A stretch of DNA of 64,000 nt. It comes from an uncultured Acidimicrobiia bacterium (GTDB lineage Bacteria > Actinomycetota > Acidimicrobiia > Spongiisociales > JAENVV01). Where the stretch lies: positions 529,518 to 593,517 of the forward strand of contig CAVOQP010000010.1 in the NCBI GenBank assembly GCA_963698385.1, read 5' to 3'. The notes below the pieces were generated by a model that saw only the letters and a list, made by a program, of their open reading frames with translations, did not search any database and was not told the origin of the DNA. Shown one piece after another: positions 8,792 to 49,269 of this stretch (position 1 is the stretch's first letter; every line of letters begins with the position of its first letter). The position numbers and the translations under genes were made by a program.

Positions 8792-8810
8792 GCAAGACTC
8801 GAGCCGTGTG

Positions 8811-8896
8811 GACTCGAACCCAGGGTTCGAGACCACACCCATGGGCGTTCTCCGGGCCCGAGACCACCTGGAGGTGGTCTCGAACCCTGGGTTCGG
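8811..8896. repeat. Palindromic MITE/REP-like element, family 1, copy A
   Basis: TIRs CTCGAACCCAGGGTTCGAG / CTCGAACCCTGGGTTCGG flank an inner hairpin GACCACCTGGAGGTGGTC. The 40-nt core is identical to copy B. Confidence 0.7.
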
Positions 8897-11141: not shown

Positions 11142-11206
11142 GCCCCAAGGCTATCGGGAGCTCCGGGGCCGGCCGTCAACCACCCCGGGCCGAACCAGCG
11201 ACGGTG

Positions 11207-28044: not shown

Positions 28045-30048
28045 ATGTCCGGACTGGACACGCCGGTGGAGCGTAAGCGCATCACGTGGCAAACCCTGCT
28101 GGCGATTGCCAGCGTGCTCATGCTGATCTTCGCGGCCTGTACGTCAGGTTCGAGTACTGCAGATGTCGGTGCCGACATCATCGAGGCTCGCGGCCTGACC
28201 GATGCCGACGTCGAAGCTGCCCTGAAGACCTTCACCCCTTCGGGTACCCACGACGAATACCTCCTGTTCGCCTCCGGCGGACACGGTGGCCAGATCGGCA
28301 TCATCGGTGTGCCGTCGATGCGCCTCCTGAAGGTGATCGCCGTGTTCACACCCGAACCCTGGCAAGGCTGGGGCTACGGCGACCTGAAGACAGAAGAAGT
28401 CCTGTCCTCCGGCGACGTCAACGGCATCGAGGTCCGTTGGGCCGACACCCACCACCCCGCCCTCTCCGAGACCGGCGGCGACTACGACGGCCAGTTCGTA
28501 TTCATCAACGACAAAGCCAACGCCCGCATCGCGGTCGTCGATCTTCGCGACTTCGAGACGAAGCAGATCGTCAAGAACCCCATCGCCATCAATGACCACG
28601 GCGGGACCATGGTCACCCCCGACACCGACTGGATCATCGAAGGCGGGCAGTACGCCACACCGCTGGCCGGTGAGTGGGCACCGATCGAGGACTACGTCGA
28701 GTCCTACCGCGGCATGGTGACGTTCTGGAAGTTCGATCGGGATAGCGGCCGCGTCCTCGAGGACCAGTCCTTCGCCATGGAACTCCCGCCCTACTGGCAG
28801 GACCTGTGTGACGCCGGCAAGCTCGTCTCCGACGGATGGGTGTTCTGCAACTCCTTCAACGTCGAGATGGCAACCGGTGGTGTCGAGGACGGCAACCCGC
28901 CATTCGAGGCCGGTGCATCGGCGCGCGACAACGACTATCTCCATGTCATCAATCTCGAGGCCGCCGTGGCAGCGAGGGATGCTGGCAAGACCGTCGACAT
29001 GAACGGCTTCCCCGTCATCGAGCTGCAAACCAGCATCGACGAGGGCCTGCTCTACTTCGTGCCAGAGCCCAAGAGCCCACATGGTGTCGACATCACCCCC
29101 AAGGGCGACTACCTCGTCATCTCCGGCAAGCTCGACCCGCACAGCACGATCTACTCATTCGAGAAGATCCAGCAGGCGATCGCGGACGAGAACTGGACCC
29201 CCGACGAGTTCGGTGTGCCGGTCCTCGACTTCGACGCGGTGCTCGAGGCCCAGGTCGAGTTGGGACTCGGTCCGCTCCACACCCAGTTCGACGACAAGGG
29301 CTACGCCTACACGTCGCTCTTCCTCGACTCGGCCGTCGCACGTTGGACCCTCGGGCCCAACTACGACCCACCTGAGGAGCCATGGACCCTGGTGACGAAG
29401 ACCCCGGTGCAGTACAACGTCGGTCACCTTGTCACCGCAGAAGGAGACACCGTCTCACCGGACGGCAAGTACCTGGTGTCACTGAACAAGTGGGCGATCG
29501 ACCGCTTCGCCGACGTCGGCCCGCTGCTCCCGCAGAACTTCCAGCTGGTCGACATCTCCCAAACCGGAGAGACGATGCCGGTGATCTACGACATGCCGAT
29601 CGGGTGGGGCGAACCGCACTACGCGCAGATCATCAAGGCTGACAAGCTGAACGCATGGCAGACGTACCCAGAGGTCGGCTTTGACCCCGGCACGATGTCG
29701 GTTGACCCCGACGCCCCCCAGTTGGGCAACGAGCGGATCGAGCGCAATGGCACCGAAGTGGAGATCTGGATGACCGCCATCCGCTCACACTTCACGCCCG
29801 AGCATGTCTCGCTCAAGCAGGGTGACCATGTCATCTGGCACATCACCAACGTGGAAACGTCCCACGACGCCACCCACGGCTTCGCGCTGCCAGGCTACAA
29901 CGTCAACCTCTCACTGGAACCAGGCGAAACGGCGTCGTTCGAGTTCGATGCAGTGAACGCAGGTGTGTACACCTACTACTGCACGGAATTCTGCTCCGCC
30001 CTCCACTTGGAGATGACGGGATACCTCATGATCGAGCCAAACTCCTAA
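28045..30048 (+). CDS. nosZ: Nitrous-oxide reductase, Sec/lipoprotein-type signal (clade II-like)
   Basis: Seven-blade propeller region and C-terminal CuA cupredoxin motif HGF...CTEFCSALHLEM. N-terminus has lipobox LIFAAC and no twin-arginine. Confidence 0.9.
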   Translation: MSGLDTPVERKRITWQTLLAIASVLMLIFAACTSGSSTADVGADIIEARGLTDADVEAALKTFTPSGTHDEYLLFASGGHGGQIGIIGVPSMRLLKVIAVFTPEPWQGWGYGDLKTEEVLSSGDVNGIEVRWADTHHPALSETGGDYDGQFVFINDKANARIAVVDLRDFETKQIVKNPIAINDHGGTMVTPDTDWIIEGGQYATPLAGEWAPIEDYVESYRGMVTFWKFDRDSGRVLEDQSFAMELPPYWQDLCDAGKLVSDGWVFCNSFNVEMATGGVEDGNPPFEAGASARDNDYLHVINLEAAVAARDAGKTVDMNGFPVIELQTSIDEGLLYFVPEPKSPHGVDITPKGDYLVISGKLDPHSTIYSFEKIQQAIADENWTPDEFGVPVLDFDAVLEAQVELGLGPLHTQFDDKGYAYTSLFLDSAVARWTLGPNYDPPEEPWTLVTKTPVQYNVGHLVTAEGDTVSPDGKYLVSLNKWAIDRFADVGPLLPQNFQLVDISQTGETMPVIYDMPIGWGEPHYAQIIKADKLNAWQTYPEVGFDPGTMSVDPDAPQLGNERIERNGTEVEIWMTAIRSHFTPEHVSLKQGDHVIWHITNVETSHDATHGFALPGYNVNLSLEPGETASFEFDAVNAGVYTYYCTEFCSALHLEMTGYLMIEPNS

Positions 30049-30071
30049 ACGCAACGAAGACTGGAGAAACG

Positions 30072-30728
30072 ATGGAGGCCACCAATCGTTTCCTCGGCCC
30101 CCGGGTCCCGAAAGAGACCCGGGGGCGGAGGGAATTCAGACTCCCTACGATCTTCTTCGTCAGCGCAGCCGTGCTGTTGTTGGCGTCGATCTTCGTTCCC
30201 TACTGGCGCCTGAACCTTGCCGCGCCCCAGTTCCCCAAGGGACTCATCGTCGACATCTACGTCAACGAGATGGCCGGGGACGTCGACCTCCTCGAGGGGC
30301 TCAACCACTATGTGGGACTCCCCGGGTTCGACGAAGGCGCGACACTCGAGCGCCAGATCGCCGTTGCCGGCATCCTGGCGGTCGTGGGTGCGCTCGCAGC
30401 GGGATTGTTCATCCACAGCAAATGGATCGTCCTGTTCACGCTTCCCACGCTCACGTTCCCGCTGGTGTTCCTGGCTGACCTTCAGTATTGGCTCTGGCAC
30501 TACGGGCACTCGCTCGACCCACTGGCACCGTTCGCCAGCGCCGTCGGCGAGTTCACCCCACCGGTGCTGGGACCATCCAAGATCGCCCAGTTCGACACCA
30601 TGGCCCTACCCCACGTCGGCCTCATCATGGCCTTCACCGCCACCGCACTCGTGATCCTCGGCCTTCGGGCCCATCGCAAGGTGTACGAGCCGTTGTTCGA
30701 GGCAGCCGATGAGGCACCGGTTGCATAG
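30072..30728 (+). CDS. NosB-like integral membrane protein (clade II nos accessory)
   Basis: 218 aa, about 5-6 TM, immediately after nosZ as in clade II clusters. Confidence 0.55.
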   Translation: MEATNRFLGPRVPKETRGRREFRLPTIFFVSAAVLLLASIFVPYWRLNLAAPQFPKGLIVDIYVNEMAGDVDLLEGLNHYVGLPGFDEGATLERQIAVAGILAVVGALAAGLFIHSKWIVLFTLPTLTFPLVFLADLQYWLWHYGHSLDPLAPFASAVGEFTPPVLGPSKIAQFDTMALPHVGLIMAFTATALVILGLRAHRKVYEPLFEAADEAPVA

Positions 30729-32166
30729 GCGCCCGGGTACAGGGCCCATCGGTCGAGCGGCGCACCTCAAGGCGCCGAAACGGTCGGGGTACCTGCTGCC
30801 CGGCGGGTCCCGCACGCTCACCCGTCTCCTGGTGGTGGTGCTCGTCGTGGCCGGCGTGGCGACGACCTCCCCGGCACACGCGGTGGACGACCTCCAGGGC
30901 CTCATCGACGGCGCCGAGGCCGGGTCGGAGCTCCTGGTCCCGGCCGGGACGTACAGCCCGATCGTCATCGACAAGCCGATCACCCTCCAGGGCATCGGCA
31001 ACCCTGTCATCGACGGCCACGGAGAGGGAACCGTGGTCACCATCAACGCCGACGACGTCACCATCACCGGCTTCACGATCCGGTCGTCCGGCCGATCTCT
31101 CGACCACGAGGATTCCGGCGTCTTTGCCCAAGGCGCCAGGATCACCGTCACCCACAACGTCTTCGAGGACGTCCTCTTCGGCATCTACCTACGCCTCGGA
31201 GAGGACTCGGTCATCACTCACAACGTCATCGGAGCCAAGGATCTCGAGTCGGGGCGACGCGGGGATCCCGTGAAGCTCTGGGAGAGCCCGCGCACACTCT
31301 TTGCCGACAACTCCGTCCAGAGCGGCCGTGACGTCGTGCTCTGGTACTCCGAGGGGATCGTCATCCGGGACAACGTGATCCAGGACGGTCGCTACGGCCT
31401 CCACTTCATGTACAGCCACGACGCCATGGTCTCTGGCAACACGCTCCGGGACAACTCTGTCGGGGCGTTCCTCATGTACTCCTACAACTTGACCTTCAAC
31501 GACAACCTCGTCGTGGGCAACCACGGGCCATCCGGGTACGGGATGGGGCTCAAGGACATGGACGGCGTGGAGGCGTCCGGCAATGAGTTCATCGGCAACC
31601 GCATTGGGATCTACCTCGACAACTCCCCCACCAAGGTCGACCTCATCCAACACTTCACCGACAACCTCATCGCCCACAACGACGTCGGTGTCATGCTGCT
31701 TCCCGCTGTCCAAGGCAACGTGTTCTCGGGCAACGCCTTCGTCGAGAACCGCGAACAGGTCGGCGTTGCCGGATCCGGTACCCCTCGCAACAACGATTGG
31801 GCGGCCAACGGCATCGGCAACCACTGGAGCGACTTCGCCGGCTATGACGCCGACGGCGACGGGTTGGGAGACATCCCCCACCGGGTCGACGACCTCTTTT
31901 CTGCCCTCACCGATACGAAGTCCGAACTCATGATCTTCTCCGGGTCGCCCGCAGCCAGGCTCATCGACGCCGCCGCCAGGGCCTTCCCGACGCTCCGACC
32001 CGAACCGAAGGCGATCGACCCTTCGCCCCTCGTGGATCTCCCCTCGTTTGCCGCGCCCTCGGGGGCGTCGGCGCCCTTCGGCGTTACGCTCCTCGGGACC
32101 CTCCTCCTTGGGCTGGCAGCACTCATCGTCACCGCCGGTCGCCCACGCCGGGAGCTCCGCCCATGA
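30709..32166 (+). CDS. nosD: NosD, periplasmic right-handed beta-helix copper-processing protein
   Basis: Repeated beta-helix motifs (NVI.DN..G.., GNR.G.YL.NS) with signal peptide. Confidence 0.85.
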   Translation: MRHRLHRRPGTGPIGRAAHLKAPKRSGYLLPGGSRTLTRLLVVVLVVAGVATTSPAHAVDDLQGLIDGAEAGSELLVPAGTYSPIVIDKPITLQGIGNPVIDGHGEGTVVTINADDVTITGFTIRSSGRSLDHEDSGVFAQGARITVTHNVFEDVLFGIYLRLGEDSVITHNVIGAKDLESGRRGDPVKLWESPRTLFADNSVQSGRDVVLWYSEGIVIRDNVIQDGRYGLHFMYSHDAMVSGNTLRDNSVGAFLMYSYNLTFNDNLVVGNHGPSGYGMGLKDMDGVEASGNEFIGNRIGIYLDNSPTKVDLIQHFTDNLIAHNDVGVMLLPAVQGNVFSGNAFVENREQVGVAGSGTPRNNDWAANGIGNHWSDFAGYDADGDGLGDIPHRVDDLFSALTDTKSELMIFSGSPAARLIDAAARAFPTLRPEPKAIDPSPLVDLPSFAAPSGASAPFGVTLLGTLLLGLAALIVTAGRPRRELRP

Positions 32167-33017
32167 TCTCCATCACGAACCTCACCAAGCGCTACGGCTC
32201 CCAACTGGCGCTTGACGACGTGTCGATCGAGATCCCCGCCGGCGACGCGATCGCGCTCTGGGGCCACAACGGCGCCGGCAAGACGACCATCGTCCGCTCG
32301 ATCCTCGGCCTCATCCACTACCAGGGCGGGATCACGGTCGGCGGTCATGACGCGTTCTCGGAGGGGATCGCCGTTCGCCACCTCATCGGCCATGTACCCC
32401 AGGAACTCTCCTTCCACGATGAACTCACCGTGGCGGAGACGATGGAGTTCTCCTGCGCCCTCAAGGGCGTCAGCGGCGCACGGGCCAGGGAAGTCCTGGC
32501 CCAGGTGGGACTCGAGGGAGAGCTCGGCAAGAGGGTCGGGGCCCTCTCCGGGGGAATGAAGCAGCGCCTCGCCATCGGCCTCGCCCTGCTGGCCAACCCA
32601 CCCGTCCTGCTCCTCGACGAGCCGACCTCCAACCTGGATGCGGCCACCCGCGAGCAGATGGTCCACGTGCTGCAGGACCTGAAATCCGAGCAAAGGACCC
32701 TGGTACTCACCTCCCACAACCTCGGGGAAGTCGGCCTGCTGGCAGACCGGGTCATCACCCTCGAACACGGCCGAGTCGTGCTCGAATGCAGCCCCGGCGA
32801 ACTCGACGCGAAGCTCGGGATCTCGACCTGGCTCCATGTCACCGTCAAACAAGACGAGATCAGCCGAGCCATCGAGGCGATCCTCGGGATTGGCATGAAG
32901 GCTCGCAGCAACGGGACCGGCATCCTCGTCGAGGCGCCCGCCCAGGAGAAGGCCAAGGCCCTCGCGGTACTCGCCGCAGCCGGTGTCGATGTCCAGGACT
33001 TCGAGGTGTGGCGATGA
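32163..33017 (+). CDS. nosF: NosF ABC transporter ATP-binding protein
   Basis: GHNGAGKTT Walker A, LSGGMKQRLAIG signature, LLLDEPTSNLD Walker B. Confidence 0.85.
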   Translation: MISITNLTKRYGSQLALDDVSIEIPAGDAIALWGHNGAGKTTIVRSILGLIHYQGGITVGGHDAFSEGIAVRHLIGHVPQELSFHDELTVAETMEFSCALKGVSGARAREVLAQVGLEGELGKRVGALSGGMKQRLAIGLALLANPPVLLLDEPTSNLDAATREQMVHVLQDLKSEQRTLVLTSHNLGEVGLLADRVITLEHGRVVLECSPGELDAKLGISTWLHVTVKQDEISRAIEAILGIGMKARSNGTGILVEAPAQEKAKALAVLAAAGVDVQDFEVWR

Positions 33018-33847
33018 ACGGGCACTGGAACGCCATCCGAACCGTGGCCCGCAAGGAACTGCGGGAATCGATCCGCAACCGTTGGTTGTGGGCCATGGCC
33101 TCCGGCTTCGCACTCATCGCAGTAGCTCTCACCCTCGTGGGGCTTCCCGGCGCCCGAACCGTGGGGGCCGGGGGGTTCGGGCGCACCGCGGCGTCGTTGG
33201 TGGCCCTTGCCCAGCTCATGGCACCGCTCCTCGGGCTCACGGTGGGTGCCCAGGCGCTGGCCACGGCACGTGAGCGGGGGACCCTTCGCTTCGTGCTGTC
33301 ACACCCAATCGGCCGCTCCGACGTCCTCGCAGGGATGTTCCTGGGCTTGGGGAGCGCGGTCTGGGCGGCCGTGCTTGCCGGGTTCGGCGCCGCTGCGCTG
33401 GTGAGCGCGGCCCTGGGCTCCGCGGGACCGGCCGCGGTCGTCTTCACACTCACGGTCCTCTCCGGGTTGCTCGCCACGGCAATGCTCGCCCTCGGGATGG
33501 CCATCGGTGCCGGGAAGCGCGAGGCCTCCACGGCCCTCGGCACGGCCATCTTCATCTGGCTGCTGCTCGTGTTCGCAGGGGACCTGGGAATCATGGGGTC
33601 GGCCATTGCCGTCAAGATGCCGGTGAGCATCCTGTTCTTCTCGGTGATGATCAACCCGGTGGAGGCCTTCCGCATGCTGGCTGTGCCGTTCTTCGCCACA
33701 TCACTCGACGTGCTCGGGCCCGCCGGCTCCTATGCAGTCGACACACTGGGGTCCTTGGCACCCGCCACCGGCGCAGTGGTGTTGGCAGCGTGGATCGTCA
33801 TCCCCGGCGTGTTTGCATTGCGGCGATTCAATCGGAGTGACTTCTGA
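33014..33847 (+). CDS. nosY: NosY ABC-2 type permease
   Basis: 6 TM. ATG overlaps the nosF stop (ATGA). Confidence 0.8.
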   Translation: MNGHWNAIRTVARKELRESIRNRWLWAMASGFALIAVALTLVGLPGARTVGAGGFGRTAASLVALAQLMAPLLGLTVGAQALATARERGTLRFVLSHPIGRSDVLAGMFLGLGSAVWAAVLAGFGAAALVSAALGSAGPAAVVFTLTVLSGLLATAMLALGMAIGAGKREASTALGTAIFIWLLLVFAGDLGIMGSAIAVKMPVSILFFSVMINPVEAFRMLAVPFFATSLDVLGPAGSYAVDTLGSLAPATGAVVLAAWIVIPGVFALRRFNRSDF

Positions 33848-40405: not shown

Positions 40406-40758
40406 ATGTCCTTGTCCTGCTCTTGCTCCCACTTGCCCAAGGCCGTGAGGAACATGAAGAACAGGATCGTGGAGACGATCATCCAGCTGAGGGGGATGAT
40501 CCGGATCTCGAAGTTGTTGAGTCCTTCGAAGTTGGCCGGCTTGGGGCCCCGCGGGGCGTACATGACGAACAGAAGGGAGTTGATCGCCATCCACCCCGAC
40601 AGGCCTGCTCCAACGACGAGGAAGGCCAGTTTCTTGCCGAGATTGGTGGCGTTGATGAGGTACACCGACCCGTAGAACACGAGGATCGCCGACAGCACCA
40701 GGACGATGCCGGTGAACAGGACACTTGAGCTCAACAGCTCCCGCATGAGTTCTCGCAT
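40402..40758 (-). CDS. Small 3-TM membrane protein (last gene of the bc-complex operon)
   Basis: 118 aa and hydrophobic. Overlaps the stop of the upstream cytochrome c gene. Confidence 0.5.
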   Translation of the reverse strand: MRELMRELLSSSVLFTGIVLVLSAILVFYGSVYLINATNLGKKLAFLVVGAGLSGWMAINSLLFVMYAPRGPKPANFEGLNNFEIRIIPLSWMIVSTILFFMFLTALGKWEQEQDKDI

Positions 40759-42281
40759 CAGTTGCCTCCTCCGAGCGCTGGACCGCCCAAGGTGTCGCCC
40801 AGCAGGTATGTGGCCAGCAGGTCGAGGTCGGCCTGGGAGAGCAAACCACCGAACCCGGGCATGTACCCGCGGCCGATGCCGTTCACGCCGTAGGGCTGGC
40901 CCGACACGGAGCCCGAGGCGATGAAGCCGGCCAGGCTCACGGCGTCACCGAACTGGACCGTCGCCCTGGGTGGCAGCAACGATGGCCCGAACCCGCCGGC
41001 GCCGATCGGGCCCTGGAACGCCGCCCCGGCCGAGTATCCGGTGGTGTGACATCGCGAGCAGTTGGCGTTGAAGAGGTTGATGGCTCGTTGGGCCGAGGCG
41101 CGGTCGCCACTGAATGAAGCGTCCGCCACCGCATCGATGTCGACCTCCCACAGCGCACCTGAGATGGCGTCGGTCAAATAGTCGAGCCCACCCTGGAACC
41201 GCTCGAGGGTCCGGGCCTTGGTCTCGGCCGCCACCTCGAAGAGCTGGATCGTCTTGATGATTCTCGAGAAGTCGCCTTCCACGACGTGGCCGCCCTCGTC
41301 GGTGTAGCCGTGGAACACGTCGCCGTCGTCGGTGACCCCGTTCGTCCTTGGGTTCCGCGGGTCGAGGTCGAGGTCGGGTATCAGCACGGGCGTCACGCCG
41401 AGTACCTCGTACTCCTTGAGCCCGAGGGCTGCCACCTCGGCGAAGAGCCCGGGGAGGAGGTTCTCGGCATTGTCGGAGAGGCCGTCCCGGTCGACGTCGA
41501 CGCCGTCGTCCTCCGAGAGGGCCACGATCTTCTCACCGATGACAGAGAGGGCCGGGGCGAAGCGCCCCGCATCGTTGGCGAATGCGACCAGCGTCTGCTG
41601 GGATGCCAGCAGCGCGGCCGCCGCGTCGCCGCTTCCTTCGAGCCTGGCCTGGGCGACTGCCACGTCGCCTTCGATGAGGTTGAGCGCCTCGGCCTGGGTG
41701 AGTTGGACCGACTCGATGTAGTTGAGGAGGTCTTCGACCTCCTGGTCGTTGAGGGGTCCGCCCCCAGCGAGACCCCACGCCGGCATCGGGGTCCCCGGGC
41801 GCCCGTACTCGATCCAGAACTTGACCTCGTCGCGGCTGTACCGATACATGATCGTGTCGAGTCGGGGAGCCAGCCAACTGACAGCCACGTTGGACCGGCC
41901 CTCGACGAAGGAGGCCACGCCCCCGGACAGCCCCGGTCCATGACACCCGGCGCAGTCGAGTCCACCGTCGGCGGTGGTGGCCGCAGCCGCGGTCCCGCGC
42001 GCCAGCGACTCCGCCTCGAAGTCGTGGGCGAACCCGGCCTGGCGGTCGGTCTCACCGAGGAAGTACACCGGCATCGAGATGGCGAGGAAAGCAGCGAAGA
42101 TGACCGACCAGGCCAGGGCCTTGTCGAGTCGGGGACCCTCCAGTTCGTCGTTCGGCATCCCCGGGCGCAGGTTCGCCGGGACCTTCTCCTTGCCCTTCCC
42201 ACGCACGGAGCCGACGACCATGTACGACAACCAGGTGACGACCGCGACCGCGGCGAGCACCATGACGAGACTGTTCAGCAT
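40758..42281 (-). CDS. Membrane-anchored di-heme c-type cytochrome
   Basis: AAAGGAG RBS. N-terminal TM segment, then CAGCHG and CSRCHT heme motifs. Confidence 0.8.
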   Translation of the reverse strand: MLNSLVMVLAAVAVVTWLSYMVVGSVRGKGKEKVPANLRPGMPNDELEGPRLDKALAWSVIFAAFLAISMPVYFLGETDRQAGFAHDFEAESLARGTAAAATTADGGLDCAGCHGPGLSGGVASFVEGRSNVAVSWLAPRLDTIMYRYSRDEVKFWIEYGRPGTPMPAWGLAGGGPLNDQEVEDLLNYIESVQLTQAEALNLIEGDVAVAQARLEGSGDAAAALLASQQTLVAFANDAGRFAPALSVIGEKIVALSEDDGVDVDRDGLSDNAENLLPGLFAEVAALGLKEYEVLGVTPVLIPDLDLDPRNPRTNGVTDDGDVFHGYTDEGGHVVEGDFSRIIKTIQLFEVAAETKARTLERFQGGLDYLTDAISGALWEVDIDAVADASFSGDRASAQRAINLFNANCSRCHTTGYSAGAAFQGPIGAGGFGPSLLPPRATVQFGDAVSLAGFIASGSVSGQPYGVNGIGRGYMPGFGGLLSQADLDLLATYLLGDTLGGPALGGGN

Positions 42282-42300
42282 GTTGTCAGCTCCTTTCTCG

Positions 42301-43158
42301 TCAGATGCAGGACGGGCCCTGCGGGTACTTCACGGACTTACGGACGGCACGAGATGTCTCGATGATCTGGCCGGTGCTGATGATGAACCGGTTGCGATCG
42401 TTCACCGCCACGACGAAGCGGTCGAGGTTGCGAGGCGCCGGGCCGGCGATGTATTCACCGGCGGCGTTGTACTTCGATCCGTGGCAGGGGCACTCGAATC
42501 CCTGTGACGGTGTGCACCACGGGACCCGGCAGCCGAGGTGCACGCAGGTCTGGTAGAGGGCGACCAGGTTGTGGTCGACCGTCGAGTTTCCCTCGAACTG
42601 GGACCCGGTCACCGACTCCGGCAGCATTGGGATGACGTAGGCGCGGGCCTCCGGGAGGAACAGCGGGCTGATGGTCCCGTCGGCGTTGAGGACCTTGGCC
42701 AGGATCTCGTCGGCATCGCCACCATCGATGTCCGCCCCGAAGCCGCCCTTCACCTTCGGCCACATGAAGGCAAAGGCGCTCATCCCGAAACCGGCGAGGA
42801 AGGTCCCCCACATGGCAAGGAGGGCACGGTTCAGGAACATGCGGCGGGTGACGCCTTGCTCGTCGGGGGTGGCCTCGACGTAGTCCACGACGACGGGGGA
42901 CTCCTCGGCCACTTCGGTGAGGACCATCGTGTCGCCGGTCCCGGCGTCCGCCACGGCATCCGCCACTGCGTGCTCCTCGGCGACCTGGGCAGTGGCGATC
43001 ATCACCGGGACCTCGGAGCGCTTGTCGGCCTTGGCGGCCTTCTCGTCGACCCTCGCCTTCCAGCCCGGGTCGTTGCTCCGGCGGTAGGCAATCGTGAAGG
43101 CGGCCGCAGCAGCAAGGACGGCAACCGCCGCCAGCGCAATCGGGAGCAGGTCGGTCAT
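42301..43158 (-). CDS. Rieske [2Fe-2S] iron-sulfur subunit of a cytochrome bc/b6f-type complex
   Basis: CVHLGC...CPCHGS Rieske boxes with an N-terminal TM anchor. The long N-terminal extension of ORF 42301..43473 is rejected. Confidence 0.85.
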   Translation of the reverse strand: MTDLLPIALAAVAVLAAAAAFTIAYRRSNDPGWKARVDEKAAKADKRSEVPVMIATAQVAEEHAVADAVADAGTGDTMVLTEVAEESPVVVDYVEATPDEQGVTRRMFLNRALLAMWGTFLAGFGMSAFAFMWPKVKGGFGADIDGGDADEILAKVLNADGTISPLFLPEARAYVIPMLPESVTGSQFEGNSTVDHNLVALYQTCVHLGCRVPWCTPSQGFECPCHGSKYNAAGEYIAGPAPRNLDRFVVAVNDRNRFIISTGQIIETSRAVRKSVKYPQGPSCI

Positions 43159-43967
43159 CAGTGGCCTCCGAGGTCCGCGAAGTGGACCCAGTCCTTGAGA
43201 TCGTCGAAGAAGATCCCATCGTTCCACGGGTAGACGAAGTTGAAGCCCGGACCCCGGAAGAGGACACCGAACATCGTGAGCGTCGCCGCGCCCATCAGGA
43301 AGAACGTGAACATGAAGATCACGAACTTGCGATCGGATGGCTTGGTCGAAGGGTTCTTGTCGATGTAGGGCACGGCCATGAGCCCGAACAGACCGGTGAT
43401 GAGCGGGACCGACACACCTGCGACCGCAGGGTCGAAGTAGGAAAGGAGTTCCTGCAAGCCGAGGAAGTACCACGGGGCCTTCGACGGGTTGGGGGTGGCG
43501 TTGAAGTTCGCGGCCTCGAGCAGCGGAGCCTGGAGGATGGTCGAGAGAACGATGAGGATCCCGGTGACCGCGAGAAGAGCCGCGAACTCGATGATCATCA
43601 GGTGCGGCCAGGTGTTCACCTTGTCCTGGGGTTCGACCTTGGCCTGCTGAATCGCCTTGGCCTTGACGACGGTGAGGAGACGCTGGGTCCGCACACCCTC
43701 CGGGCCCGAGACCGCCGGGGCGACCGGGCGCACCGAGGTGGCTTTCGACGGGTCACCGGTCATCACCACTGCGGCAGGCACCGGTGCAGCCGCAGGAGCA
43801 GCCGCGACAGCCGGTGCCGGTTCCGCGGCGGGTACGGCCGCAACGGGCGCGGCAGTCGGGGGCGCTTCGCCCTTCAGTTGGGCCATCGCTTCCTCGACCG
43901 AGATGCCGAGTGCTTTCGCCTTGGCCTCCGCCGACCGGCGGAGTAGGTGTTCGGGGAGTTCAGCCAT
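43158..43967 (-). CDS. Cytochrome b C-terminal (subunit IV-like) protein with extra N-terminal cytoplasmic module
   Basis: PWYFLGLQELLSYF motif of cytochrome b6f subunit IV / cytochrome b C-terminus. N-terminus MAELPEHLLRRSAEAKAKALGISVEE resembles the N-termini of 47560 and 48343. Confidence 0.75.
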   Translation of the reverse strand: MAELPEHLLRRSAEAKAKALGISVEEAMAQLKGEAPPTAAPVAAVPAAEPAPAVAAAPAAAPVPAAVVMTGDPSKATSVRPVAPAVSGPEGVRTQRLLTVVKAKAIQQAKVEPQDKVNTWPHLMIIEFAALLAVTGILIVLSTILQAPLLEAANFNATPNPSKAPWYFLGLQELLSYFDPAVAGVSVPLITGLFGLMAVPYIDKNPSTKPSDRKFVIFMFTFFLMGAATLTMFGVLFRGPGFNFVYPWNDGIFFDDLKDWVHFADLGGH

Positions 43968-43979
43968 CGCACCTTCTCC

Positions 43980-44741
43980 TTACAGCGGCCCAGAGATGCC
44001 GCCATCCTTCCGGACACGCCAGAAGTGGACGGCCATGAAGATGACGATGATGAATGGGAAGAAGAGGACATGGAGCACGTACCAGCGGAGGAGGGTGTCG
44101 GCCGACACCACCGCCGAGCCCAGCAGGGTGAACTTCACCTGGCTCCCGAAGACCGGCACGAACGACGCCATGTTCGTTCCCACGGTGACGGCCCAGAGGG
44201 CCAACTGGTCCCACGGCAGGAGGTAGCCGGTGAAGGAGAGAAGGAGAGTGAGGAGCAGGAGCACGACGCCGACCACCCAGTTGAACTCGCGGGGCGGCTT
44301 GTAGGCACCGTGGTAGAAGACCCGGCTCATGTGGAGGAAGACCGTGAGCACCATGAAGTGGGCTCCCCACCGGTGCATGTTCCGCACGAGGGACCCGAAC
44401 GCCACGGAGGTCGAGAGCTCCTGGATGTCCTGGTAGGCAGCCTCGGCGGTCGGGGCGTAATAGAACATGAGGAAGATGCCGGTGATCGTCAGCAGGATGA
44501 AGAGGAAGAAGCTGAGGCCCCCGAGGCACAGGGTGTAGGAGAGCCGAACGCTGTGCCGCTTCACCTTGACCGGGTGGAGGTGATAGAGCACGTTGTTCAT
44601 GATCACGTAGGAGCGGTTGCGGGGGCTGTCCGTGTACCCCTTCTTGAAGGGGGACCCCGGCCGGAGGATCGAGTCCATGAGCGGACTGCCATGCAGGGCC
44701 GACGGAAGCTCTTTGACCTTGTTGAGGAGTTTCTGCACCAC
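43980..44741 (-). CDS. Cytochrome b6-like (N-terminal half of a split cytochrome b; bis-His heme b ligands)
   Basis: 4 TM with His pairs ([10 protein letters not shown], ...HVLFFPF...HFW). GTG start at VVQKLLNKV is an inference. Confidence 0.75.
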
Positions 44742-44746
44742 TGTTC

Positions 44747-45199
44747 TCACATCCCGCGAATGCCGTAGACGAACCCGTTCTTGTGGTCCCGCTCGCCCGA
44801 GTCGATCTCCCACGGGGCGGGGAGACCTTCCTGCTCGGCGGTGGCGGAGACCGAACCTTCGAACTTGCCGAGGGTGATCACGCCCGTGGGGCACCGGTCG
44901 ATGCAGAGCGCGCACCGGGTGCAGGTGTCCTCGTCCACGAGGAAGAAGCCGAACGCCTCGGGGTCATCGTGGGGATCGGCCACACCGGATGCATCGCGGA
45001 TGGCGTCGATCGAGAGGTAGTGGATGCACTTCCAGGGACAGATATCGACGCAGCCCTCACACAGGATGCATTCGGCTTGGTCGATGTGGAGGAACTGCTT
45101 GGGTCTGACCTGCTTGAGCAGGTAGTCGCCTTCGACCAGGGCGAGGGTGTAGTCGTCGCGGATCGGGGGGACTTCGAAGTAGACCTCGGTGCGGGCCAT
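44747..45199 (-). CDS. 2x[4Fe-4S] ferredoxin-type subunit
   Basis: [12 protein letters not shown] and [16 protein letters not shown] overlap with the upstream gene. Confidence 0.8.
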
Positions 45200-45831
45200 C
45201 AGGCGCCGGCCTTCTTCAGCGGGCGGCCATACGGGGAGATCGCATCGCCCTCGGCCACCCTCGGTGTCGTCTTCCCCCACCCCTGGATCTTGAAAGCGAA
45301 GTACAGGACCGCCGCCAGCGAGGCGAGGTGGTAGCCACCGAGGACCATGTCCTTGAGGGCTGCGTAGGAAATGCTGATCGGGTTGTTGAGCACGATCCAC
45401 TTGGGGATCGTGAAGGCGATCTTCTGGGAGGTGAAACCGAGGGGGCCCTGGGTGAGGTTCAGCCACTCGGACGGGATGACGCCCCACACGAGGATGAGTT
45501 CGATGAAGGCCAGCCAAGCTGCGAAGCCTGCCCGTGCCCACGTCATCGGCTTGTTGGCCACCCACTGCAGCGCGGCACCGGCCAGGAGGAACTGTGAACC
45601 GCCGATCGCCACCAACTGCCCGGCGGTGAAGACGACCCAGTGGCGGGGAACCCAGGTGAGGTAGGTCGCGAAGTGCTCCTCCCCGGGAGCCGTGCCATCG
45701 GGGGCGAGCCCGGCGTGGGCAAAGAAGATCCCGACCACCAACGCGCCGAAGCCCAACACCATGAGCGCCCACGCGATGCGTGAGCGTTGCTTGTCGGTGA
45801 GGTTGGCAAGTCGATGAATCAGTCGGTCCAT
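45199..45831 (-). CDS. Hypothetical membrane protein (about 5 TM), first gene of the bc-complex operon
   Basis: MDRLIHRLANLTDKQRSRIAWALMVLGFGALVVGIFFA... Confidence 0.45.
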   Translation of the reverse strand: MDRLIHRLANLTDKQRSRIAWALMVLGFGALVVGIFFAHAGLAPDGTAPGEEHFATYLTWVPRHWVVFTAGQLVAIGGSQFLLAGAALQWVANKPMTWARAGFAAWLAFIELILVWGVIPSEWLNLTQGPLGFTSQKIAFTIPKWIVLNNPISISYAALKDMVLGGYHLASLAAVLYFAFKIQGWGKTTPRVAEGDAISPYGRPLKKAGA

Positions 45832-46153
45832 GCGAGCCGTCGATGCCTGTCTTGGGTCGGTGTTCCTGTTCGCGGCGATGCCCGTGGGAGGCCAGGGCGT
45901 CGGCGCCATGTTTAGCAGAATCACCCTACCGACATCGAAACGGGATCAAGGTCCGGATCGCCGTCGAGGACGGGTCCCGGGGCGTCGGAGGCCGGGACCG
46001 AGCGGCGGCTGGAAGGCGGGTTTTGACGCTCCCCATCCGGAGAGCGAGAATGCGTGACGCCGGCGCGGGTTCGCGTCGGGCGAGGGAGCATGAAGGAGTC
46101 GCGGACCGGTAGGCTGCGGCCGTCTCCGACCGAGGAAAGAGAAGGAGTTGGGG

Positions 46154-47563
46154 TTGGCCACTGACACAGAAGCGGCACACGCGGTGGATGGTGCCACCGT
46201 CGTGACCCGCTGGGCGCTGGTGGCGGGCGCTGTCCTGATCGCCTTGGCCGCCTTCCTCCACTTCAGCGCATGGCTCTCGCTGGTCTTCCCGCCGGTCTTC
46301 GGCGGGTTGGGATTCGCGCAATTCGGACGACTGAAACCCATGGCCGATGCCGTCCTGATGTTCGGTGGCTTCTACTTCGTCAATACCGGCGCCCTCTACA
46401 TCCTCCTCCCGCGCCTCACCGGCACCACACTGCGGGATGTCGGCCTCGCGCGTGCCAACACCCTGTGGACGCTGCTCGTGGGCGTCGCCTCGGTCGTCGC
46501 CGTGGGTATCGGACTCGGCGACGGAAGGGCCGGCTTCGAGTTCCCGCTCATCCTCGACGCCGCCTATCTCACAACCCTCTTCGTCCCGGCCTGGATCACC
46601 CGGCGTGCATTCTCGACTCGAACCGAGGACTCGCTCCACCCGACCGTGTGGGCCCTGATGACGGGGTTCCTCGCCCTGGCGGTTGCCCTCGTTGTCGCCA
46701 ACTTCCCCCTCACGGAGGCCACCGGAGGTTGGATCCAAGTGGCGTTCGGACGCGGCCTCGTGCTGTGGACCTGGGTGCTCGGGTCGGGCGTCGGCATCGC
46801 CTGGTACGTGGTGCCCAAGGCATCCGGTCGTCCGCTGTTCAGTCGTCAACTGGCTCAGATCGTCGTCTTCTCGATGCTTCTCCCACCCGCGGTCGCAGGG
46901 CTGGCCGGGCTGGCATTCGGCCCGGTCGCCGATTGGGCCGAGACCATCGGCGTCGTCTTCCGATTCTCCCTACTGGTCCCCGCGCTCGCAGTGCCGGCCG
47001 GGATCCTCGGCACCATCAACGGGGCCGATGGGCCACGGATCGCCTCGTCGCCCGCCGTTCGTACTGCGCTCGCCGGCTCTTGGCTGCTCGCCGGAGGCGG
47101 CGTCGCCAGCGCGCTCTCCGCCTTTCCCTACGTCCAGTCCGTTGTCGGACTCACGACCTTCGAGGACGGAACCATGGCGCTCCTGGTAGGAGCCGCCACG
47201 CTCTTCGCCGCTTCGTTCATCTACCACTGCCTCCCGGAGGTGACCGGCAAACCCCTCTTCTCGACGACGTTGGCCATCGACCACATGAAGCTCGTGCTGT
47301 GGGGGTCGGGCTTGACTGCCCTCTTCCTCTGGTACGCCGGGATCTACTCCGGTGCCGGGTTCCGGGGCGGCGCCCTCGGGGGACTGTGGACGGCGGTCGG
47401 TGACGGATTCGGTGATGCCACGGACGGGGCGATCCCCCTCTACATGATCGCACTCCTCGGGATGGCGTTGGTGGCGGCCGGCCAGGTCGCCTTCATGATC
47501 AACGTCCTCGGCACGACCCGCGGCGGTGCGGCCACGACCGAGTCCGAGGAGGTGGCCGCATGA
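46154..47563 (+). CDS. 12-TM membrane protein with three internal 4-TM sequence repeats; occupies the ccoN-like position but lacks the heme-copper-oxidase His ligand set
   Basis: GAAGGAG RBS. 12 hydrophobic segments. Repeated motif Y.LLPRLTGTTL / WYVVPKASGRPLFSRQL / YHCLPEVTGKPLFSTTL, one per third. Only 4 His in the TM region and no HH pair. Its stop overlaps the ATG of the FixO-like gene. Confidence 0.55.
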   Translation: MATDTEAAHAVDGATVVTRWALVAGAVLIALAAFLHFSAWLSLVFPPVFGGLGFAQFGRLKPMADAVLMFGGFYFVNTGALYILLPRLTGTTLRDVGLARANTLWTLLVGVASVVAVGIGLGDGRAGFEFPLILDAAYLTTLFVPAWITRRAFSTRTEDSLHPTVWALMTGFLALAVALVVANFPLTEATGGWIQVAFGRGLVLWTWVLGSGVGIAWYVVPKASGRPLFSRQLAQIVVFSMLLPPAVAGLAGLAFGPVADWAETIGVVFRFSLLVPALAVPAGILGTINGADGPRIASSPAVRTALAGSWLLAGGGVASALSAFPYVQSVVGLTTFEDGTMALLVGAATLFAASFIYHCLPEVTGKPLFSTTLAIDHMKLVLWGSGLTALFLWYAGIYSGAGFRGGALGGLWTAVGDGFGDATDGAIPLYMIALLGMALVAAGQVAFMINVLGTTRGGAATTESEEVAA

Positions 47564-48336
47564 GTGAGTACCTCGCAGCCGCGGCCGCCAACATGGGCAT
47601 GCCCGAGTCACTCGTGATGCGCTCCGCCGAGGCCAAGGCCAAGGCTGGCGGTGTCACCGTCGAGGACCTCCTCAGGGAATGGGCGGGCGGGGAACCGGCG
47701 ACTGCGTCCGCGCCTCCGTCCGCGCCCGCGTCTGCAGCTTCGTCTGCCCCGGAGCCTGTGTCTGCGGCTGCTCCAGCCGCTCCCGCCGCGCCGGTGGTCG
47801 TCACAGCCGCTGCGACACGACGGCACGTCGTGGCCCGCAAGGACCCGGATGCTGCCCCCCTCCTCGTAGGCGCCCGACAGGGACACATCCGGATGCTCTT
47901 GACCATCATGACGGTGCTCGTCGTCGGCTCAGCCCTCGGGGCGCTCCTGCCGACCCAGGCCGCCCGCCAGGACGTGAACAACGCCATCGGCTCACAACCC
48001 GACTACACCGACCAAGCCATCAGCGGGCGGGACATCTACCTGGCCGAGGGGTGCTGGACATGCCACACGATGGTGGTCAGGGCCACCGCCACCGACTACG
48101 GCCTCGGCAAGGTCACCACCCCGAAGGACGTTGCGCCGGTTGCCGGTGAGTCGCTCGGGGTGCGGAGGATCGGTCCCGACCTCGCCCACATCGGAAGTCG
48201 CCGAGACCCGGCCTTCATCTTCAACTTCCTCGTCGACCCCGGCTCGGTGGCCGAAGGTGCCCGGCACCCCGGCTATGCGTTCCTTTCCGAAGACGAACTC
48301 GGCTCGCTGACCGCGTTCCTGATCGAGACGAAGTGA
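47560..48336 (+). CDS. ccoO: FixO/CcoO-like membrane-anchored mono-heme cytochrome c (cbb3 oxidase subunit II family) with N-terminal extension
   Basis: GRDIYLAEGCWTCHT...RRIGPDLAHIGSR...PGYAFL aligns with the FixO motifs GRNIYIREGCYLCHS...KRTGPDLARVG...PGYAFL. Carries about 100 extra N-terminal residues. Confidence 0.8.
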   Translation: MSEYLAAAAANMGMPESLVMRSAEAKAKAGGVTVEDLLREWAGGEPATASAPPSAPASAASSAPEPVSAAAPAAPAAPVVVTAAATRRHVVARKDPDAAPLLVGARQGHIRMLLTIMTVLVVGSALGALLPTQAARQDVNNAIGSQPDYTDQAISGRDIYLAEGCWTCHTMVVRATATDYGLGKVTTPKDVAPVAGESLGVRRIGPDLAHIGSRRDPAFIFNFLVDPGSVAEGARHPGYAFLSEDELGSLTAFLIETK

Positions 48337-48342
48337 GTGCCG

Positions 48343-49269
48343 ATGAGTGAATACCTCGCAGCCGCGGCCGCCAAGATGGGCATGCCCGAGTCACTCGTCA
48401 TGCGCTCCGCCGAGGCCAAGGCCAAGGCCGGTGGCGTCACCGTCGAGGACCTGCTCCGCGAATGGGCGGGCGGGGAAGCAGCGTCAGCAGGAAAGCCCGA
48501 GCCCGGGCCCGAGCCCAAGGTGCCGGCCGAGCCGGCGTCCGAGGAGGCGGCAGCACCTGCCGCTCCGTCTGTGCCGGTCGCCGAGGCAGGGCCGGTCGAG
48601 GTGGTCTACGAGACCCTGCCGACCCCGGCGACCGTGACCCCCGAAGAAGCCATGGCCTGGGACCAGGTGACCACCATCGCTTCGGACGACGTGCGGGAGC
48701 GACCCGGGTCGGTGATCCCCCGCTGGCTGGCAGCGGCGTTCGTCATCATTCCAGTGCTGGCCCTCGGCTACCTCTTCATGAACACCGATGGCCTCACGTG
48801 CGGTGAGTCCGGCCTCCTTGCCTCGGACTTCGAAGGCAACCTCGCCAACTGCGACATGACTGCGTACGTGCCGGGAGGAGGGTCCGAGGGCGCGCTCGTC
48901 ACTGCAGCTTTCGCCGAAGGACAGGGGCTCTATTCGTCGTGCGTGTCGTGCCACGGAGCGAGCGGGGAAGGTGGTGTGGGCCCCGCATTCGGGGACGTGA
49001 CCACGACCTTTGCCGCCTGCTCCGACCACATCGAGTGGGTCAAGGTTGGCTCGGCGGGTTGGCCGACCGGGACATACGGGGACATTGGGAAACCGGTCGT
49101 CGGGGGCATGCCGGGGTTCTTCGCATCGATGTCCGAGGACCAACTCCAGTCCATCGCCCTCTACGAGCGGGTCCAGTTCGGTGGGGAAGCACTCACCGAC
49201 GCCGGGGTCAACTGCGGCATCGTCGAGGCTGAACCCGCCGAGGGCGAAGCTCCCGCTGAGGACGCCTGA
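48343..49269 (+). CDS. Membrane-anchored mono-heme cytochrome c with the same N-terminal module
   Basis: N-terminal 47 aa about 90% identical to 47560. A/P linker, TM segment, CVSCHG heme motif. Confidence 0.75.
   Translation: MSEYLAAAAAKMGMPESLVMRSAEAKAKAGGVTVEDLLREWAGGEAASAGKPEPGPEPKVPAEPASEEAAAPAAPSVPVAEAGPVEVVYETLPTPATVTPEEAMAWDQVTTIASDDVRERPGSVIPRWLAAAFVIIPVLALGYLFMNTDGLTCGESGLLASDFEGNLANCDMTAYVPGGGSEGALVTAAFAEGQGLYSSCVSCHGASGEGGVGPAFGDVTTTFAACSDHIEWVKVGSAGWPTGTYGDIGKPVVGGMPGFFASMSEDQLQSIALYERVQFGGEALTDAGVNCGIVEAEPAEGEAPAEDA

Follow-up and report, generated by a model that had tools for sequence, protein, structure and literature searches.

The window, that is, the whole 64-kb stretch of DNA analysed, contains a b6-type Rieske/cytochrome b operon (the bc operon; 40758..45924, minus strand) and a divergent operon that begins with a gene for a CcoN-like protein. 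The two share the intergenic region 45925..46147, where one promoter-like site was found at 46023-46051 (+). The six genes of the bc operon encode a membrane protein (45199-45924, -), a 2x[4Fe-4S] ferredoxin (44747-45199, -), cytochrome b6 (43980 to about 44678, -; PF00033, 162 bits), a cytochrome b6f subunit-IV-like protein (suIV; 43158..43967, -), a Rieske protein (42301-43158, -) and a di-haem cytochrome c (40758-42281, -). They are tightly coupled, with start and stop codons adjacent or overlapping at the two junctions checked. The ExtQ-like suIV was assigned from its match to PF00032 (29.3 bits; cutoff 20.7), three predicted TM helices and the location of its gene after that of cytochrome b6.

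In the divergent operon, the first gene (46148..47563, +) encodes a 12-TM protein with weak COX1 and ccoN matches. Its stop codon is overlapped (ATGA) by the start codon of the gene for a CcoO/FixO-like mono-haem cytochrome c (47560..48336, +), which is followed by the gene for a membrane-anchored mono-haem cytochrome c with a CcoP-like domain (48343..49269, +; PF00034, PF13442). The CcoO-like protein exceeds the Pfam FixO threshold (PF02433, 68.8 bits; cutoff 29.6) and contains CxxCH, as in cbb3 CcoNOP systems, which also share the order CcoN-like, CcoO-like and c-type cytochrome. In contrast to those systems, the CcoN-like protein lacks the conserved His residues, the third subunit is mono-haem instead of di-haem, and both cytochromes carry the N-terminal module described below. 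The CcoO-like protein misses the TIGR00781 equivalog level (61 bits against a cutoff of 200.65), and all the NCBIfam equivalog cutoffs for CcoNOP were missed widely.

The CcoN-like protein lacks all six haem and copper His ligands, as do its 47 orthologues. The ligands in P. stutzeri CcoN, which we take to be H60 and H347 (low-spin haem), H345 (high-spin haem) and H207, H257 and H258 (CuB), correspond in the alignment to 3MK7_A, in which the H60 position was confirmed by counting, to A, R, two non-His residues, L and a gap. Independently of the reference, no column was His in more than 50% of the 48 orthologues, with a single His in some members. The six conserved His residues of a haem-copper oxidase catalytic subunit are thus absent from 46148-47563, and the "oxidase" context is misleading. 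Our literature search found nothing on a ligand-less CcoN.

At the 5' ends of the two cytochrome genes, the segments 47560-47700 and 48343-48483 align without gaps, with 130 of 141 nucleotides identical (11 mismatches, 92.2%), confirming the near-identical coding duplication reported in the earlier note. Copy A of the module (47560..47694, +; MSEYLAAAAANMGMPESLVMRSAEAKAKAGGVTVEDLLREWAGGE; HMM E 2e-27) comprises codons 1-45 of the CcoO-like gene, and copy B (48343..48477, +; HMM E 6e-27) codons 1-45 of the mono-haem cytochrome c gene. Over these codons, 126 of 135 nucleotides are the same (93.3%); seven codons carry synonymous changes and one a non-synonymous change, so that the peptides share 44 of 45 residues with the single change N11K. 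The identity collapses from codon 46 on. A repeat search ranked the pair, with a spacing of 783 nt, first among the direct repeats of the region. Its identity is far beyond chance, since 135-nt segments paired at random and in frame from these two genes gave a mean of 31 +/- 4% and a maximum of 44%.

As described earlier, both open reading frames continue into an Ala/Pro-rich linker, one TM helix and a CxxCH haem-c domain. For the CcoO-like protein, these are the linker at 47695..47892 (+; 65-66 aa, 49% A+P), the TM helix at 47893-47949 (aa 112-130) and CWTCH from 48052 (aa 165). For the mono-haem cytochrome c, they are the linker at 48478-48723, the TM helix at 48724-48780 (aa 128-146) and CVSCH from 48940. 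The related start that had been noticed on suIV is real: a diverged copy at 43860..43967 (-; MAELPEHLLRRSAEAKAKALGISVEEAMAQLKGEAP; aa 1-36), which lacks the first helix, was detected by tblastn (E 2e-7, 52% over 33 aa) and by the HMM (E 5e-14). A shared N-terminal module therefore exists on three membrane redox subunits, and the tblastn search of the whole 64 kb gave no fourth copy, the next best match having E 0.16. Because the repeat is in frame, starts at ATG, has a dN/dS ratio of 0.08 and is conserved class-wide as protein, we rejected a mobile or repetitive DNA element (REP/MITE).

The module as a domain, its carriers and its subtypes

The ~45-residue module is predicted by AF2 to form three helices, at residues 5-12, 16-30 and 34-41 (pLDDT 91.7), and the model of a full-length carrier has the same fold over residues 1-40 (pLDDT 88-94). 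It has a short G-x-[ST] turn plus the third helix, R21, A23, A25 and G31 are invariant, and copies A and B differ by dN 0.020 and dS 0.259 (dN/dS 0.076). The predicted fold and its retention in the full-length carrier, the low dN/dS ratio and the invariant residues indicate that the module is a domain rather than a leader. A Sec or Tat signal peptide or an ordinary signal-anchor, in which a hydrophobic h-region would follow the n-region within about 30 residues of the N-terminus, was rejected, because the three proteins of the window have their first hydrophobic segment only from aa 112, 128 and 122 on; the signal-anchor reading is also countered by the high conservation over 451 clusters and by the predicted fold. 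The "RR" of the suIV-type module is followed by SAEAKAKA, with no Tat consensus and no h-region.

The earlier impression that the module matches no family recognisable by eye was borne out against Pfam, NCBIfam, PDB sequences and PDB folds. The N-terminal module of full-length carriers had no match in Pfam-A 2025 or NCBIfam r20, and 50 module sequences searched against Pfam at E<=10 gave scattered single-member noise only (LysM_RLK 2/50, RWP-RK 1/50, others). The module profile had no significant match among PDB sequences (best E 0.39), the fold search against the PDB gave no match, and nothing on the module was found in the literature. Weak Pfam matches of suIV-type modules to MIF (PF01187) were rejected, as was the label "ArfA" that JGI gives to one homologue of suIV, both reflecting local compositional similarity to a helix-Gly-Pro-Val-Glu stretch.

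The 46-aa module by itself was too short a query for a word-index homology search, which returned one fragment. Full-length queries were used instead, together with an exhaustive HMM search of 1.84 billion representatives, in which 451 clusters carried the module. Genome loci were collected with a hand-made degenerate DNA pattern and then verified with the HMM (116 of 118). Given these numbers, the possibility raised in the earlier note, that the module is a signal-anchor variant conserved only in these paralogues, does not hold. All named carriers are Acidimicrobiia, except for two contigs that are probably mis-binned, and no record was found of contigs encoding the window's own CcoO-like protein. 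A phage origin was rejected, since the sole IMG/VR match (L121) is a 4.2-kb fragment with an Actinomarina-type pair of CcoO and cytochrome c, most likely cellular. Canonical CcoO and suIV of outgroups from other phyla (P0064-P0067) lack the module.

The carriers that could be classified (143 of 226) are CcoO-like proteins, cytochromes c, suIV or members of a polytopic family; the remaining 83 are mostly fragments (63 shorter than 200 aa), those in genome loci being nearly all cut by the locus end. The module occurs in 1-7 tandem copies per protein, with an exact intragenic duplicate in one carrier and internal copies far from the N-terminus in some. Its presence in four unrelated architectures and in variable tandem arrays indicates that it is portable. 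The repeat thus encodes a portable, previously undescribed domain of ~45 residues with three predicted helices.

Two subtypes were distinguished. The acidic W-type, ending in ...AWAGG, stands at the N-terminus of the CcoO-like protein, the mono-haem cytochrome c and the polytopic protein, whereas the M-type (IPEHLLRRSAEAKAKA...LAEMKGE) opens suIV of the b6-type bc complex and is kept on all of the best 120 suIV homologues (median net charge -4 and -1, respectively). The suIV copy is therefore related, as had been proposed, but it belongs to a separate, orthologously conserved type that is not homogenised with the two W-type copies. The two types at times occur in one polypeptide (P0068/L048, L106). 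In 16 of 16 loci with both types, the bc operon and the CcoN-like operon lie next to each other in divergent orientation, 3.4-3.9 kb apart. The polytopic W-type carrier is encoded near a Caa3_CtaG assembly gene, which in L001 belongs to a full caa3 oxidase operon.

In complete carriers, the module precedes the first TM helix on Ala/Pro-rich linkers of ~70 aa, and K+R are enriched ahead of TM1; the linker-equivalent region in the model of the polytopic carrier is predicted to be disordered. The module thus stands before TM1 of proteins with a necessarily periplasmic haem-c domain, or of suIV with its n-side N-terminus, which is consistent with the cytoplasmic placement suggested earlier.

Gene conversion between the W-type copies

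The DNA identity of copies A and B might be explained without conversion, by protein constraint and codon bias or by a recent one-off duplication, and the 67% GC content of the genome, its biased codon usage and the strong purifying selection would favour this. Such an explanation is, however, hardly credible in view of the codon comparisons. The window copies use the same codon at 32 of 39 positions, where the codon usage of the operon itself would predict 17 (P 9.5e-7), and the median same-codon fraction is 0.60 for paralogues within genomes but 0.36-0.38 at identical residues between genomes. The W-type copies are 100% identical in nucleotide sequence in five genomes; in the low-GC Actinomarina they are 100% identical within a genome, yet species of one genus differ by 7-19%. 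Assembly collapse is an unlikely cause of such pairs, because the two members of each pair sit on one contig, ~790 nt from each other, and their flanks are distinct.

In addition, the identity between genomes is 0.60 for CcoO with CcoO and 0.61 for CcoO with cytochrome c, so that no orthology signal is left, and 33 of 60 modules are closest to the paralogue from their own genome. The conversion tracts, ~135 to >300 nt long, begin exactly at the ATG, whereas their 3' ends vary. In L107, L003 and L093, the identity continues past the domain into linker sequence that is unconstrained. These sequence comparisons strongly support recurrent gene conversion that homogenises the two W-type copies within a genome.

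CcoO and cytochrome c pairs with the module are present in at least 30 species from all over the class, among them Ca. Actinomarina with a GC content of 34%. Given this class-wide pairing, the duplication is ancient, which also argues against the explanation without conversion. In the window copies, ~0.26 synonymous substitutions per site have accumulated since a conversion, with purifying selection acting strongly; the last conversion is not very recent (dS 0.26). Of the recent gene conversion or duplication suggested in the earlier note, gene conversion is upheld by the same-codon excess, the fully identical pairs and the tracts, whereas a recent duplication is contradicted by the distribution over at least 30 species and by the dS value. 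Identity of the W copies is not required, since in roughly one genome in three it has fallen to 58-70%.

Concerted evolution by gene conversion is known for bacterial paralogues such as tufA/tufB and the rRNA operons. As in the tufA/tufB type, the W copies are closer to each other than orthologues are between genomes, at synonymous sites too, and have tract-like boundaries. Unlike in tufA/tufB, conversion is confined to the 5' domain part of two adjacent, otherwise unrelated genes, and the locus is an unusually clean natural case of such domain-limited conversion.

Possible functions of the module

Our best guess, offered tentatively, is that the module provides multivalent docking in the cytoplasm, by which respiratory complexes would be co-assembled. 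It would act as a protein-protein "sticker" on flexible "spacers" at the cytoplasmic face and would bring about the co-assembly or co-localisation of the part of the respiratory chain that leads from quinol to acceptor, namely the bc complex, the two cytochromes on the ligand-less CcoN scaffold and the caa3-associated membrane protein. Contacts might be made from module to module or via a common partner, with the variable copy number setting the valency, and conversion might be tolerated or favoured because all W copies would have to fit one surface. The restriction of the classified carriers to respiratory membrane proteins supports docking indirectly, as does the divergent pairing of the operons in 16 of 16 loci; this pairing and the polytopic carrier beside caa3/CtaG genes suggest that the carriers are functionally coupled.

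Several observations stand against docking. The invariant Ala, Gly, Trp or Met and Pro-Glu (helix cap) residues could all be structural, and thus do not demonstrate a conserved binding patch. The drift of the W copies in about a third of genomes shows that their identity is not needed, and the combination of W and M in one polypeptide is awkward for a simple lock and key in which W binds M. A long flexible linker would equally suit the recruitment of a soluble partner.

Known supercomplexes provide both a precedent and a difference. The bcc-aa3 supercomplex is obligate in Mycobacterium and Corynebacterium, an actinobacterial precedent for a hard-wired association of complexes III and IV. Supercomplexes of bc1 and cbb3 have been described in Pseudomonas aeruginosa (PMC10556555) and Rhodobacter capsulatus (PMC7876108). 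As is proposed for the window genes, these systems couple a Rieske/cytochrome b complex to a CcoN/CcoO-type complex with membrane-anchored c-type cytochromes as relay. However, they are held by transmembrane and periplasmic contacts without cytoplasmic tethers and contain a competent oxidase, whereas the window offers putative cytoplasmic connectors on flexible linkers and a ligand-less CcoN. If true, tethering from the cytoplasm would mean that respiratory supercomplexes can be built on a new principle.

The multivalent "sticker-and-spacer" scaffolds CcmM (SSUL repeats) and CsoS2 function in carboxysome assembly. Like the module, they consist of small tandem units on flexible linkers in lineage-variable copy number, and they cluster complexes by avidity; they are, however, soluble and have an experimentally defined target, Rubisco, whereas the module repeats are part of membrane subunits.

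A broader reading joins these elements: the ligand-less CcoN would serve solely as a membrane scaffold for the two c-type cytochromes, this relay unit, the b6-type bc complex and the caa3-associated protein would be clustered by the cytoplasmic multivalent "sticker", and ongoing conversion would keep the W copies compatible. As a whole, this is doubtful. If true, the end of the respiratory chain in Acidimicrobiia, including the marine Ca. Actinomarina, would be organised in a way not described elsewhere.

Alternatively, the module may recruit a soluble cytoplasmic factor to each carrier without linking complexes, which we regard as possible although rather unlikely. Candidates would be an assembly or maturation chaperone, a cofactor-delivery protein, a protease adaptor for quality control, a kinase or the soluble 2x[4Fe-4S] ferredoxin encoded in the bc operon. 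The anatomy of a folded mini-domain, a ~70-aa flexible linker and tandem arrays suits recruitment as it suits docking, and the concerted evolution of the W copies would fit a single shared ligand. Peripheral-subunit-binding domains (PSBD, E3_binding) and lipoyl domains sit on Ala/Pro-rich linkers in the E2 chains of 2-oxoacid dehydrogenases, and by analogy the module resembles the PSBDs, which recruit E1 and E3. The PSBD, which docks other proteins, is the nearest "works-like" analogue: it too is a helical domain of ~35-45 aa on long Ala/Pro-rich linkers, sometimes in tandem. It differs in having two helices and a loop instead of three helices, and in sitting on a soluble enzyme core instead of integral membrane respiratory subunits. 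A sequence relationship to PF02817 is absent (no match among 50 module members at E<=10), as is the helix-loop-helix with a GTG..GRI loop. Against recruitment, no candidate partner was identified, and a single maturation factor is not obvious, since the cofactors of the carriers differ (haem c; none for suIV). Canonical CcoO and suIV of other phyla also assemble without the module.

An aid to biogenesis is improbable. A fast-folding N-terminal cap might enforce the N-in orientation of the signal-anchor or shield the linker from degradation. The folding state of an N-terminal domain is known, mainly from the eukaryotic ER, to influence signal-anchor orientation, and by analogy such a role would suit a predicted stable, autonomously folding mini-domain at the extreme N-terminus, upstream of the first TM helix, with the signal-anchor emerging more than 100 residues later. 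This would leave unexplained the tandem arrays of up to seven, the internal copies and the two conserved subtypes tied to particular complexes, and homologues elsewhere insert correctly without domain and linker. Binding to nucleic acid or the membrane surface by a helix-extended-helix or ANTAR-like three-helix fold, anchoring the complexes to the nucleoid, RNA or anionic lipids, is very improbable given the negative median net charge of both subtypes.

Whatever the module does, it represents a hitherto unrecognised domain family that is a mark of bc subunit IV and of the CcoO-like cytochrome across an entire bacterial class, to which some of the most abundant actinobacteria of the sea belong. 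Its retention in streamlined genomes of about 34% GC suggests that it is presumably important. The absence of metal ligands from the CcoN of these organisms also means that high-affinity oxygen respiration inferred from Acidimicrobiia "cbb3-type oxidase" genes in metagenomes may be wrong. Oxidases of the cbb3 type have been assigned to several metagenome-assembled genomes (PMC8357290), although those genomes may not be Acidimicrobiia, nor the genes of the type seen here.

Two divergent operons and a repeated coding segment

The plus-strand operon encodes a CcoN-like protein (46148-47563, +) with weak matches to the COX1 and ccoN models, a CcoO/FixO-like mono-haem cytochrome (47560-48336, +; PF02433, 68.8 bits) and, as its third gene, a mono-haem cytochrome c (48343-49269, +). 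The ungapped alignment of 47560-47700 with 48343-48483 contained 11 mismatches in 141 nt (92.2% identity), and the earlier note's description of a near-identical coding duplication of about 140 bp is accurate. In the self-comparison of the window, this pair, with a spacing of 783 nt, was recovered as the region's top-ranking direct repeat. Over codons 1-45, copy A (47560-47694, CcoO-like gene) and copy B (48343-48477, cytochrome c gene) differ by seven synonymous changes and one non-synonymous change (N11K), and the resemblance drops away abruptly from codon 46; the chance baseline for random in-frame 135-nt pairs from the same genes was 31 ± 4% identity. Searching the entire window by tblastn revealed one more, diverged copy at the N-terminus of the ORF at 43158-43967 (-) (52% over 33 aa, E = 2e-7), and no additional copy of the module besides it.

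This ORF encodes the subunit-IV-like protein of the divergent bc operon (-), whose products are a membrane protein, a 2x[4Fe-4S] ferredoxin, cytochrome b6, the subunit-IV-like protein, a Rieske protein and a di-haem cytochrome c. Little space separates the genes, whose start and stop codons overlap at both junctions that were located, and a Rieske/cytochrome b complex with this make-up is unusual. Its first two genes (44747-45924, -) encode a 241-aa membrane protein lacking a Pfam match and a soluble 150-aa 2x[4Fe-4S] ferredoxin (44747-45199); the start codon of the ferredoxin gene overlaps the stop codon of the gene upstream. Cytochrome b6 and the subunit-IV-like protein scored best against the ExtP and ExtQ models (305 bits for ExtP).

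In each carrier of the window, 65-85 aa of Ala/Pro-rich linker separate the module from the first TM helix; in the two cytochromes, the order of linker, TM anchor and cytochrome c domain is as originally described. Lys and Arg are commoner before the first TM helix than after it. Since haem-c domains are necessarily periplasmic and the N-terminus of subunit IV is on the n-side, the module is cytoplasmic, as had been proposed; its position before the first TM helix, the charge bias and the established topology all agree.

Family status, carriers and subtypes of the module

The consensus of a 50-sequence alignment was MSE.LAAAA..MG.PE.LV.RSAEARAKA.G.SVD.IL.AWAGGEA, in which R21, A23, A25 and G31 are invariant; these four residues may all be structural. 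The module matched nothing in Pfam, even member by member at E ≤ 10, or among the PDB sequences, and the test for membership in any described family was negative, in agreement with the earlier remark that no family was recognisable by eye. Neither the module nor a ligand-less CcoN was found in the literature searched. The precomputed Pfam MIF match on some subunit-IV-like homologues and the JGI label "ArfA" on one of them (P0339) are apparently spurious matches to the module.

The module is located at residue 1 in all the CcoO-like homologues except a truncated fragment (P0008), and four outgroup CcoO proteins are without it. The homologue search for the CcoO-like protein also drew in unrelated proteins via the module alone, namely cytochromes c bearing two or three tandem copies and polytopic proteins of ~390 aa without a Pfam domain. 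When 1.84 billion representatives were searched exhaustively with the profile, 451 clusters matched at E ≤ 1e-3 and 290 at E ≤ 1e-10, with as many as seven copies per protein. Among 226 carriers, 62 were CcoO-like, 46 were mono-haem cytochromes c (1-5 copies), 23 were polytopic and 12 were subunit IV proteins (2-5 copies); the 83 unclassified carriers were mostly fragments (63 under 200 aa), and those in the genome loci were nearly all cut by a locus end. All of the 120 best subunit-IV homologues bear 1-4 copies.

The survey of related genomes that had been proposed was extended with a degenerate nucleotide pattern built on the invariant core, which found at least 118 loci, listed from MAGs and SAGs, in species-representative genomes; at least 116 were HMM-verified, and the two unverified loci are chance matches in other phyla. 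Among the matches listed, all named carriers except two contigs belong to Acidimicrobiia, including Ca. Actinomarina, OM1/OCS155, Spongiisociaceae and Aldehydirespiratoraceae. HMM-verified modules lie on a Kiloniellaceae (L062) and a Thermoanaerobaculia (L070) MAG contig, in bins assigned outside Actinomycetota; both contigs are probably mis-binned. The sole "viral" contig with the module (IMGVR_UViG_3300006481_000153, 4176 nt) encodes an Actinomarina-type pair of CcoO-like protein and cytochrome c with identical modules, and looks like a cellular Actinomarina fragment misfiled as viral.

Two subtypes were distinguished. The W-type, which ends in WAGG and has a median net charge of -4, is carried by the CcoO-like, cytochrome c and polytopic proteins, and the M-type (IPEHLLRRSAEAKAKA..LAEMKGE, net charge -1), whose first copy is without helix 1, by subunit IV. 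Between genomes, the M-type copies are 69% conserved; their similarity to the W copies of the same genome (42%) does not exceed that to random W copies (45%). Therefore, of the earlier claim that three redox subunits share the module, the presence of a related sequence on the subunit-IV-like protein stands, whereas that sequence is a relative and not the same module. In P0339 (residues ~125-240), two M-type copies and their linkers are exact tandem duplicates, indicating that copy number is shifting through recent intragenic duplication.

Concerted evolution of the paired copies

In 30 of the genomes retrieved, among them the 34%-GC Actinomarina, a CcoO module is followed 740-950 nt downstream by a cytochrome c module, indicating that the duplication is ancient. 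The within-genome paralogues were nevertheless more similar (median identities of 0.79 for aa and 0.76 for nt; same-codon fraction, 0.60) than between-genome orthologues (0.60-0.63, 0.62-0.64 and 0.36-0.38, respectively). Between genomes, CcoO-to-CcoO identity equalled CcoO-to-cytochrome-c identity, and thus the orthology signal is gone. The own-genome paralogue was the nearest neighbour for 33 of 60 modules, and in five genomes the copies were 100% identical in nucleotides, whereas congeneric Actinomarina species differ by 7-19%. The identity tracts always begin precisely at the ATG. Their 3' end coincides with the domain boundary in the window and falls shortly inside the linker at L116; at three other module-bearing loci (L107, L003 and L093) the tracts extend at least 170 nt beyond the PE codon.

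The window copies use the same codon at 32 of 39 informative positions, compared to 17 expected from codon usage (P = 9.5e-7), and show a dS of 0.259, a dN of 0.020 and a dN/dS of 0.076. Across the genomes, the paired copies are homogenised by recurrent gene conversion; the synonymous sites and the tracts rule out selection acting without conversion. Of the initial suggestion of recent gene conversion or duplication, conversion is thus borne out, whereas the duplication is ancient and, given the dS, the latest conversion in the window is not very recent.

The 135-nt direct repeats (47560-48483) bracket the main part of the CcoO-like gene. If they recombined homologously with each other, CcoO would be lost and the module left fused to cytochrome c; that the pair persists in at least 30 species suggests selection against such deletion.

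Possible function and genomic setting

The module is a selected and portable cytoplasmic domain with a predicted fold, found only on membrane proteins from the quinol-to-acceptor part of the chain; its valency varies on flexible spacers, and its W copies evolve in concert. We tentatively propose a protein-protein docking role, in which the module might co-assemble or cluster the carrier complexes, the modules contacting either each other or one common partner. Among the nearest systems is the actinobacterial bcc-aa3 supercomplex. The nearest working analogues include the sticker-and-spacer scaffolds CcmM and CsoS2, and the E2 peripheral-subunit-binding domain, a small docking domain on Ala/Pro linkers. 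By analogy with the latter, the module may instead recruit a soluble factor; this main alternative to docking between the carriers appears rather unlikely. A role in biogenesis or topology would leave the tandem arrays unexplained. Nucleic-acid or lipid binding is disfavoured, as the module is acidic and has no profile or fold match. We regard the module as a portable domain of putative docking type whose copies evolve in concert, with a real chance that it reveals a new way of organising a respiratory chain. The bc1-cbb3 supercomplexes (PMC10556555, PMC7876108) are also among the nearest systems.

In the alignment to P. stutzeri CcoN (3MK7), the CcoN-like protein of the window has a non-His residue or a gap at all six metal-ligand positions; the absent canonical His ligands are those of haem b, haem b3 and CuB. 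Among 48 near-full-length CcoN-like orthologues from the Acidimicrobiia loci, no His column exceeded 50%, and some have one His in the whole sequence. Canonical binding of haem b, haem b3 or CuB by this protein is predicted to be impossible. The protein has the look of a scaffold for both c-type cytochromes, and the operon that goes under the name cbb3 in this lineage probably does not encode an oxygen reductase.

The bc and CcoN-like operons were divergent neighbours in all 16 loci holding both module types, with the W-type and M-type starts 3.4-3.9 kb apart. The polytopic W-type carrier (~390 aa), for which neither a Pfam match nor a known fold relative was found, follows a ~450-aa membrane protein with an HGIGG..DLP motif at its start in 12 of 13 loci (e.g., L001 at 7885-11194, L036, L044 and L061). 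A Caa3_CtaG assembly gene lies a few kb from the polytopic carrier in most loci, and at L001 it belongs to a full caa3 oxidase operon. The polytopic cluster of L001 and L002 also encodes a Thr-rich lipoprotein-like protein and a 53-aa protein. In the window, a nitrous-oxide reductase cluster (28045-33847, +), comprising nosZ (667 aa, nos_propeller), nosD, nosF (ABC ATPase) and nosY (ABC-2 permease), lies ~7 kb from the bc operon, and the bc complex and the cytochrome relay could feed nitrous-oxide reductase.
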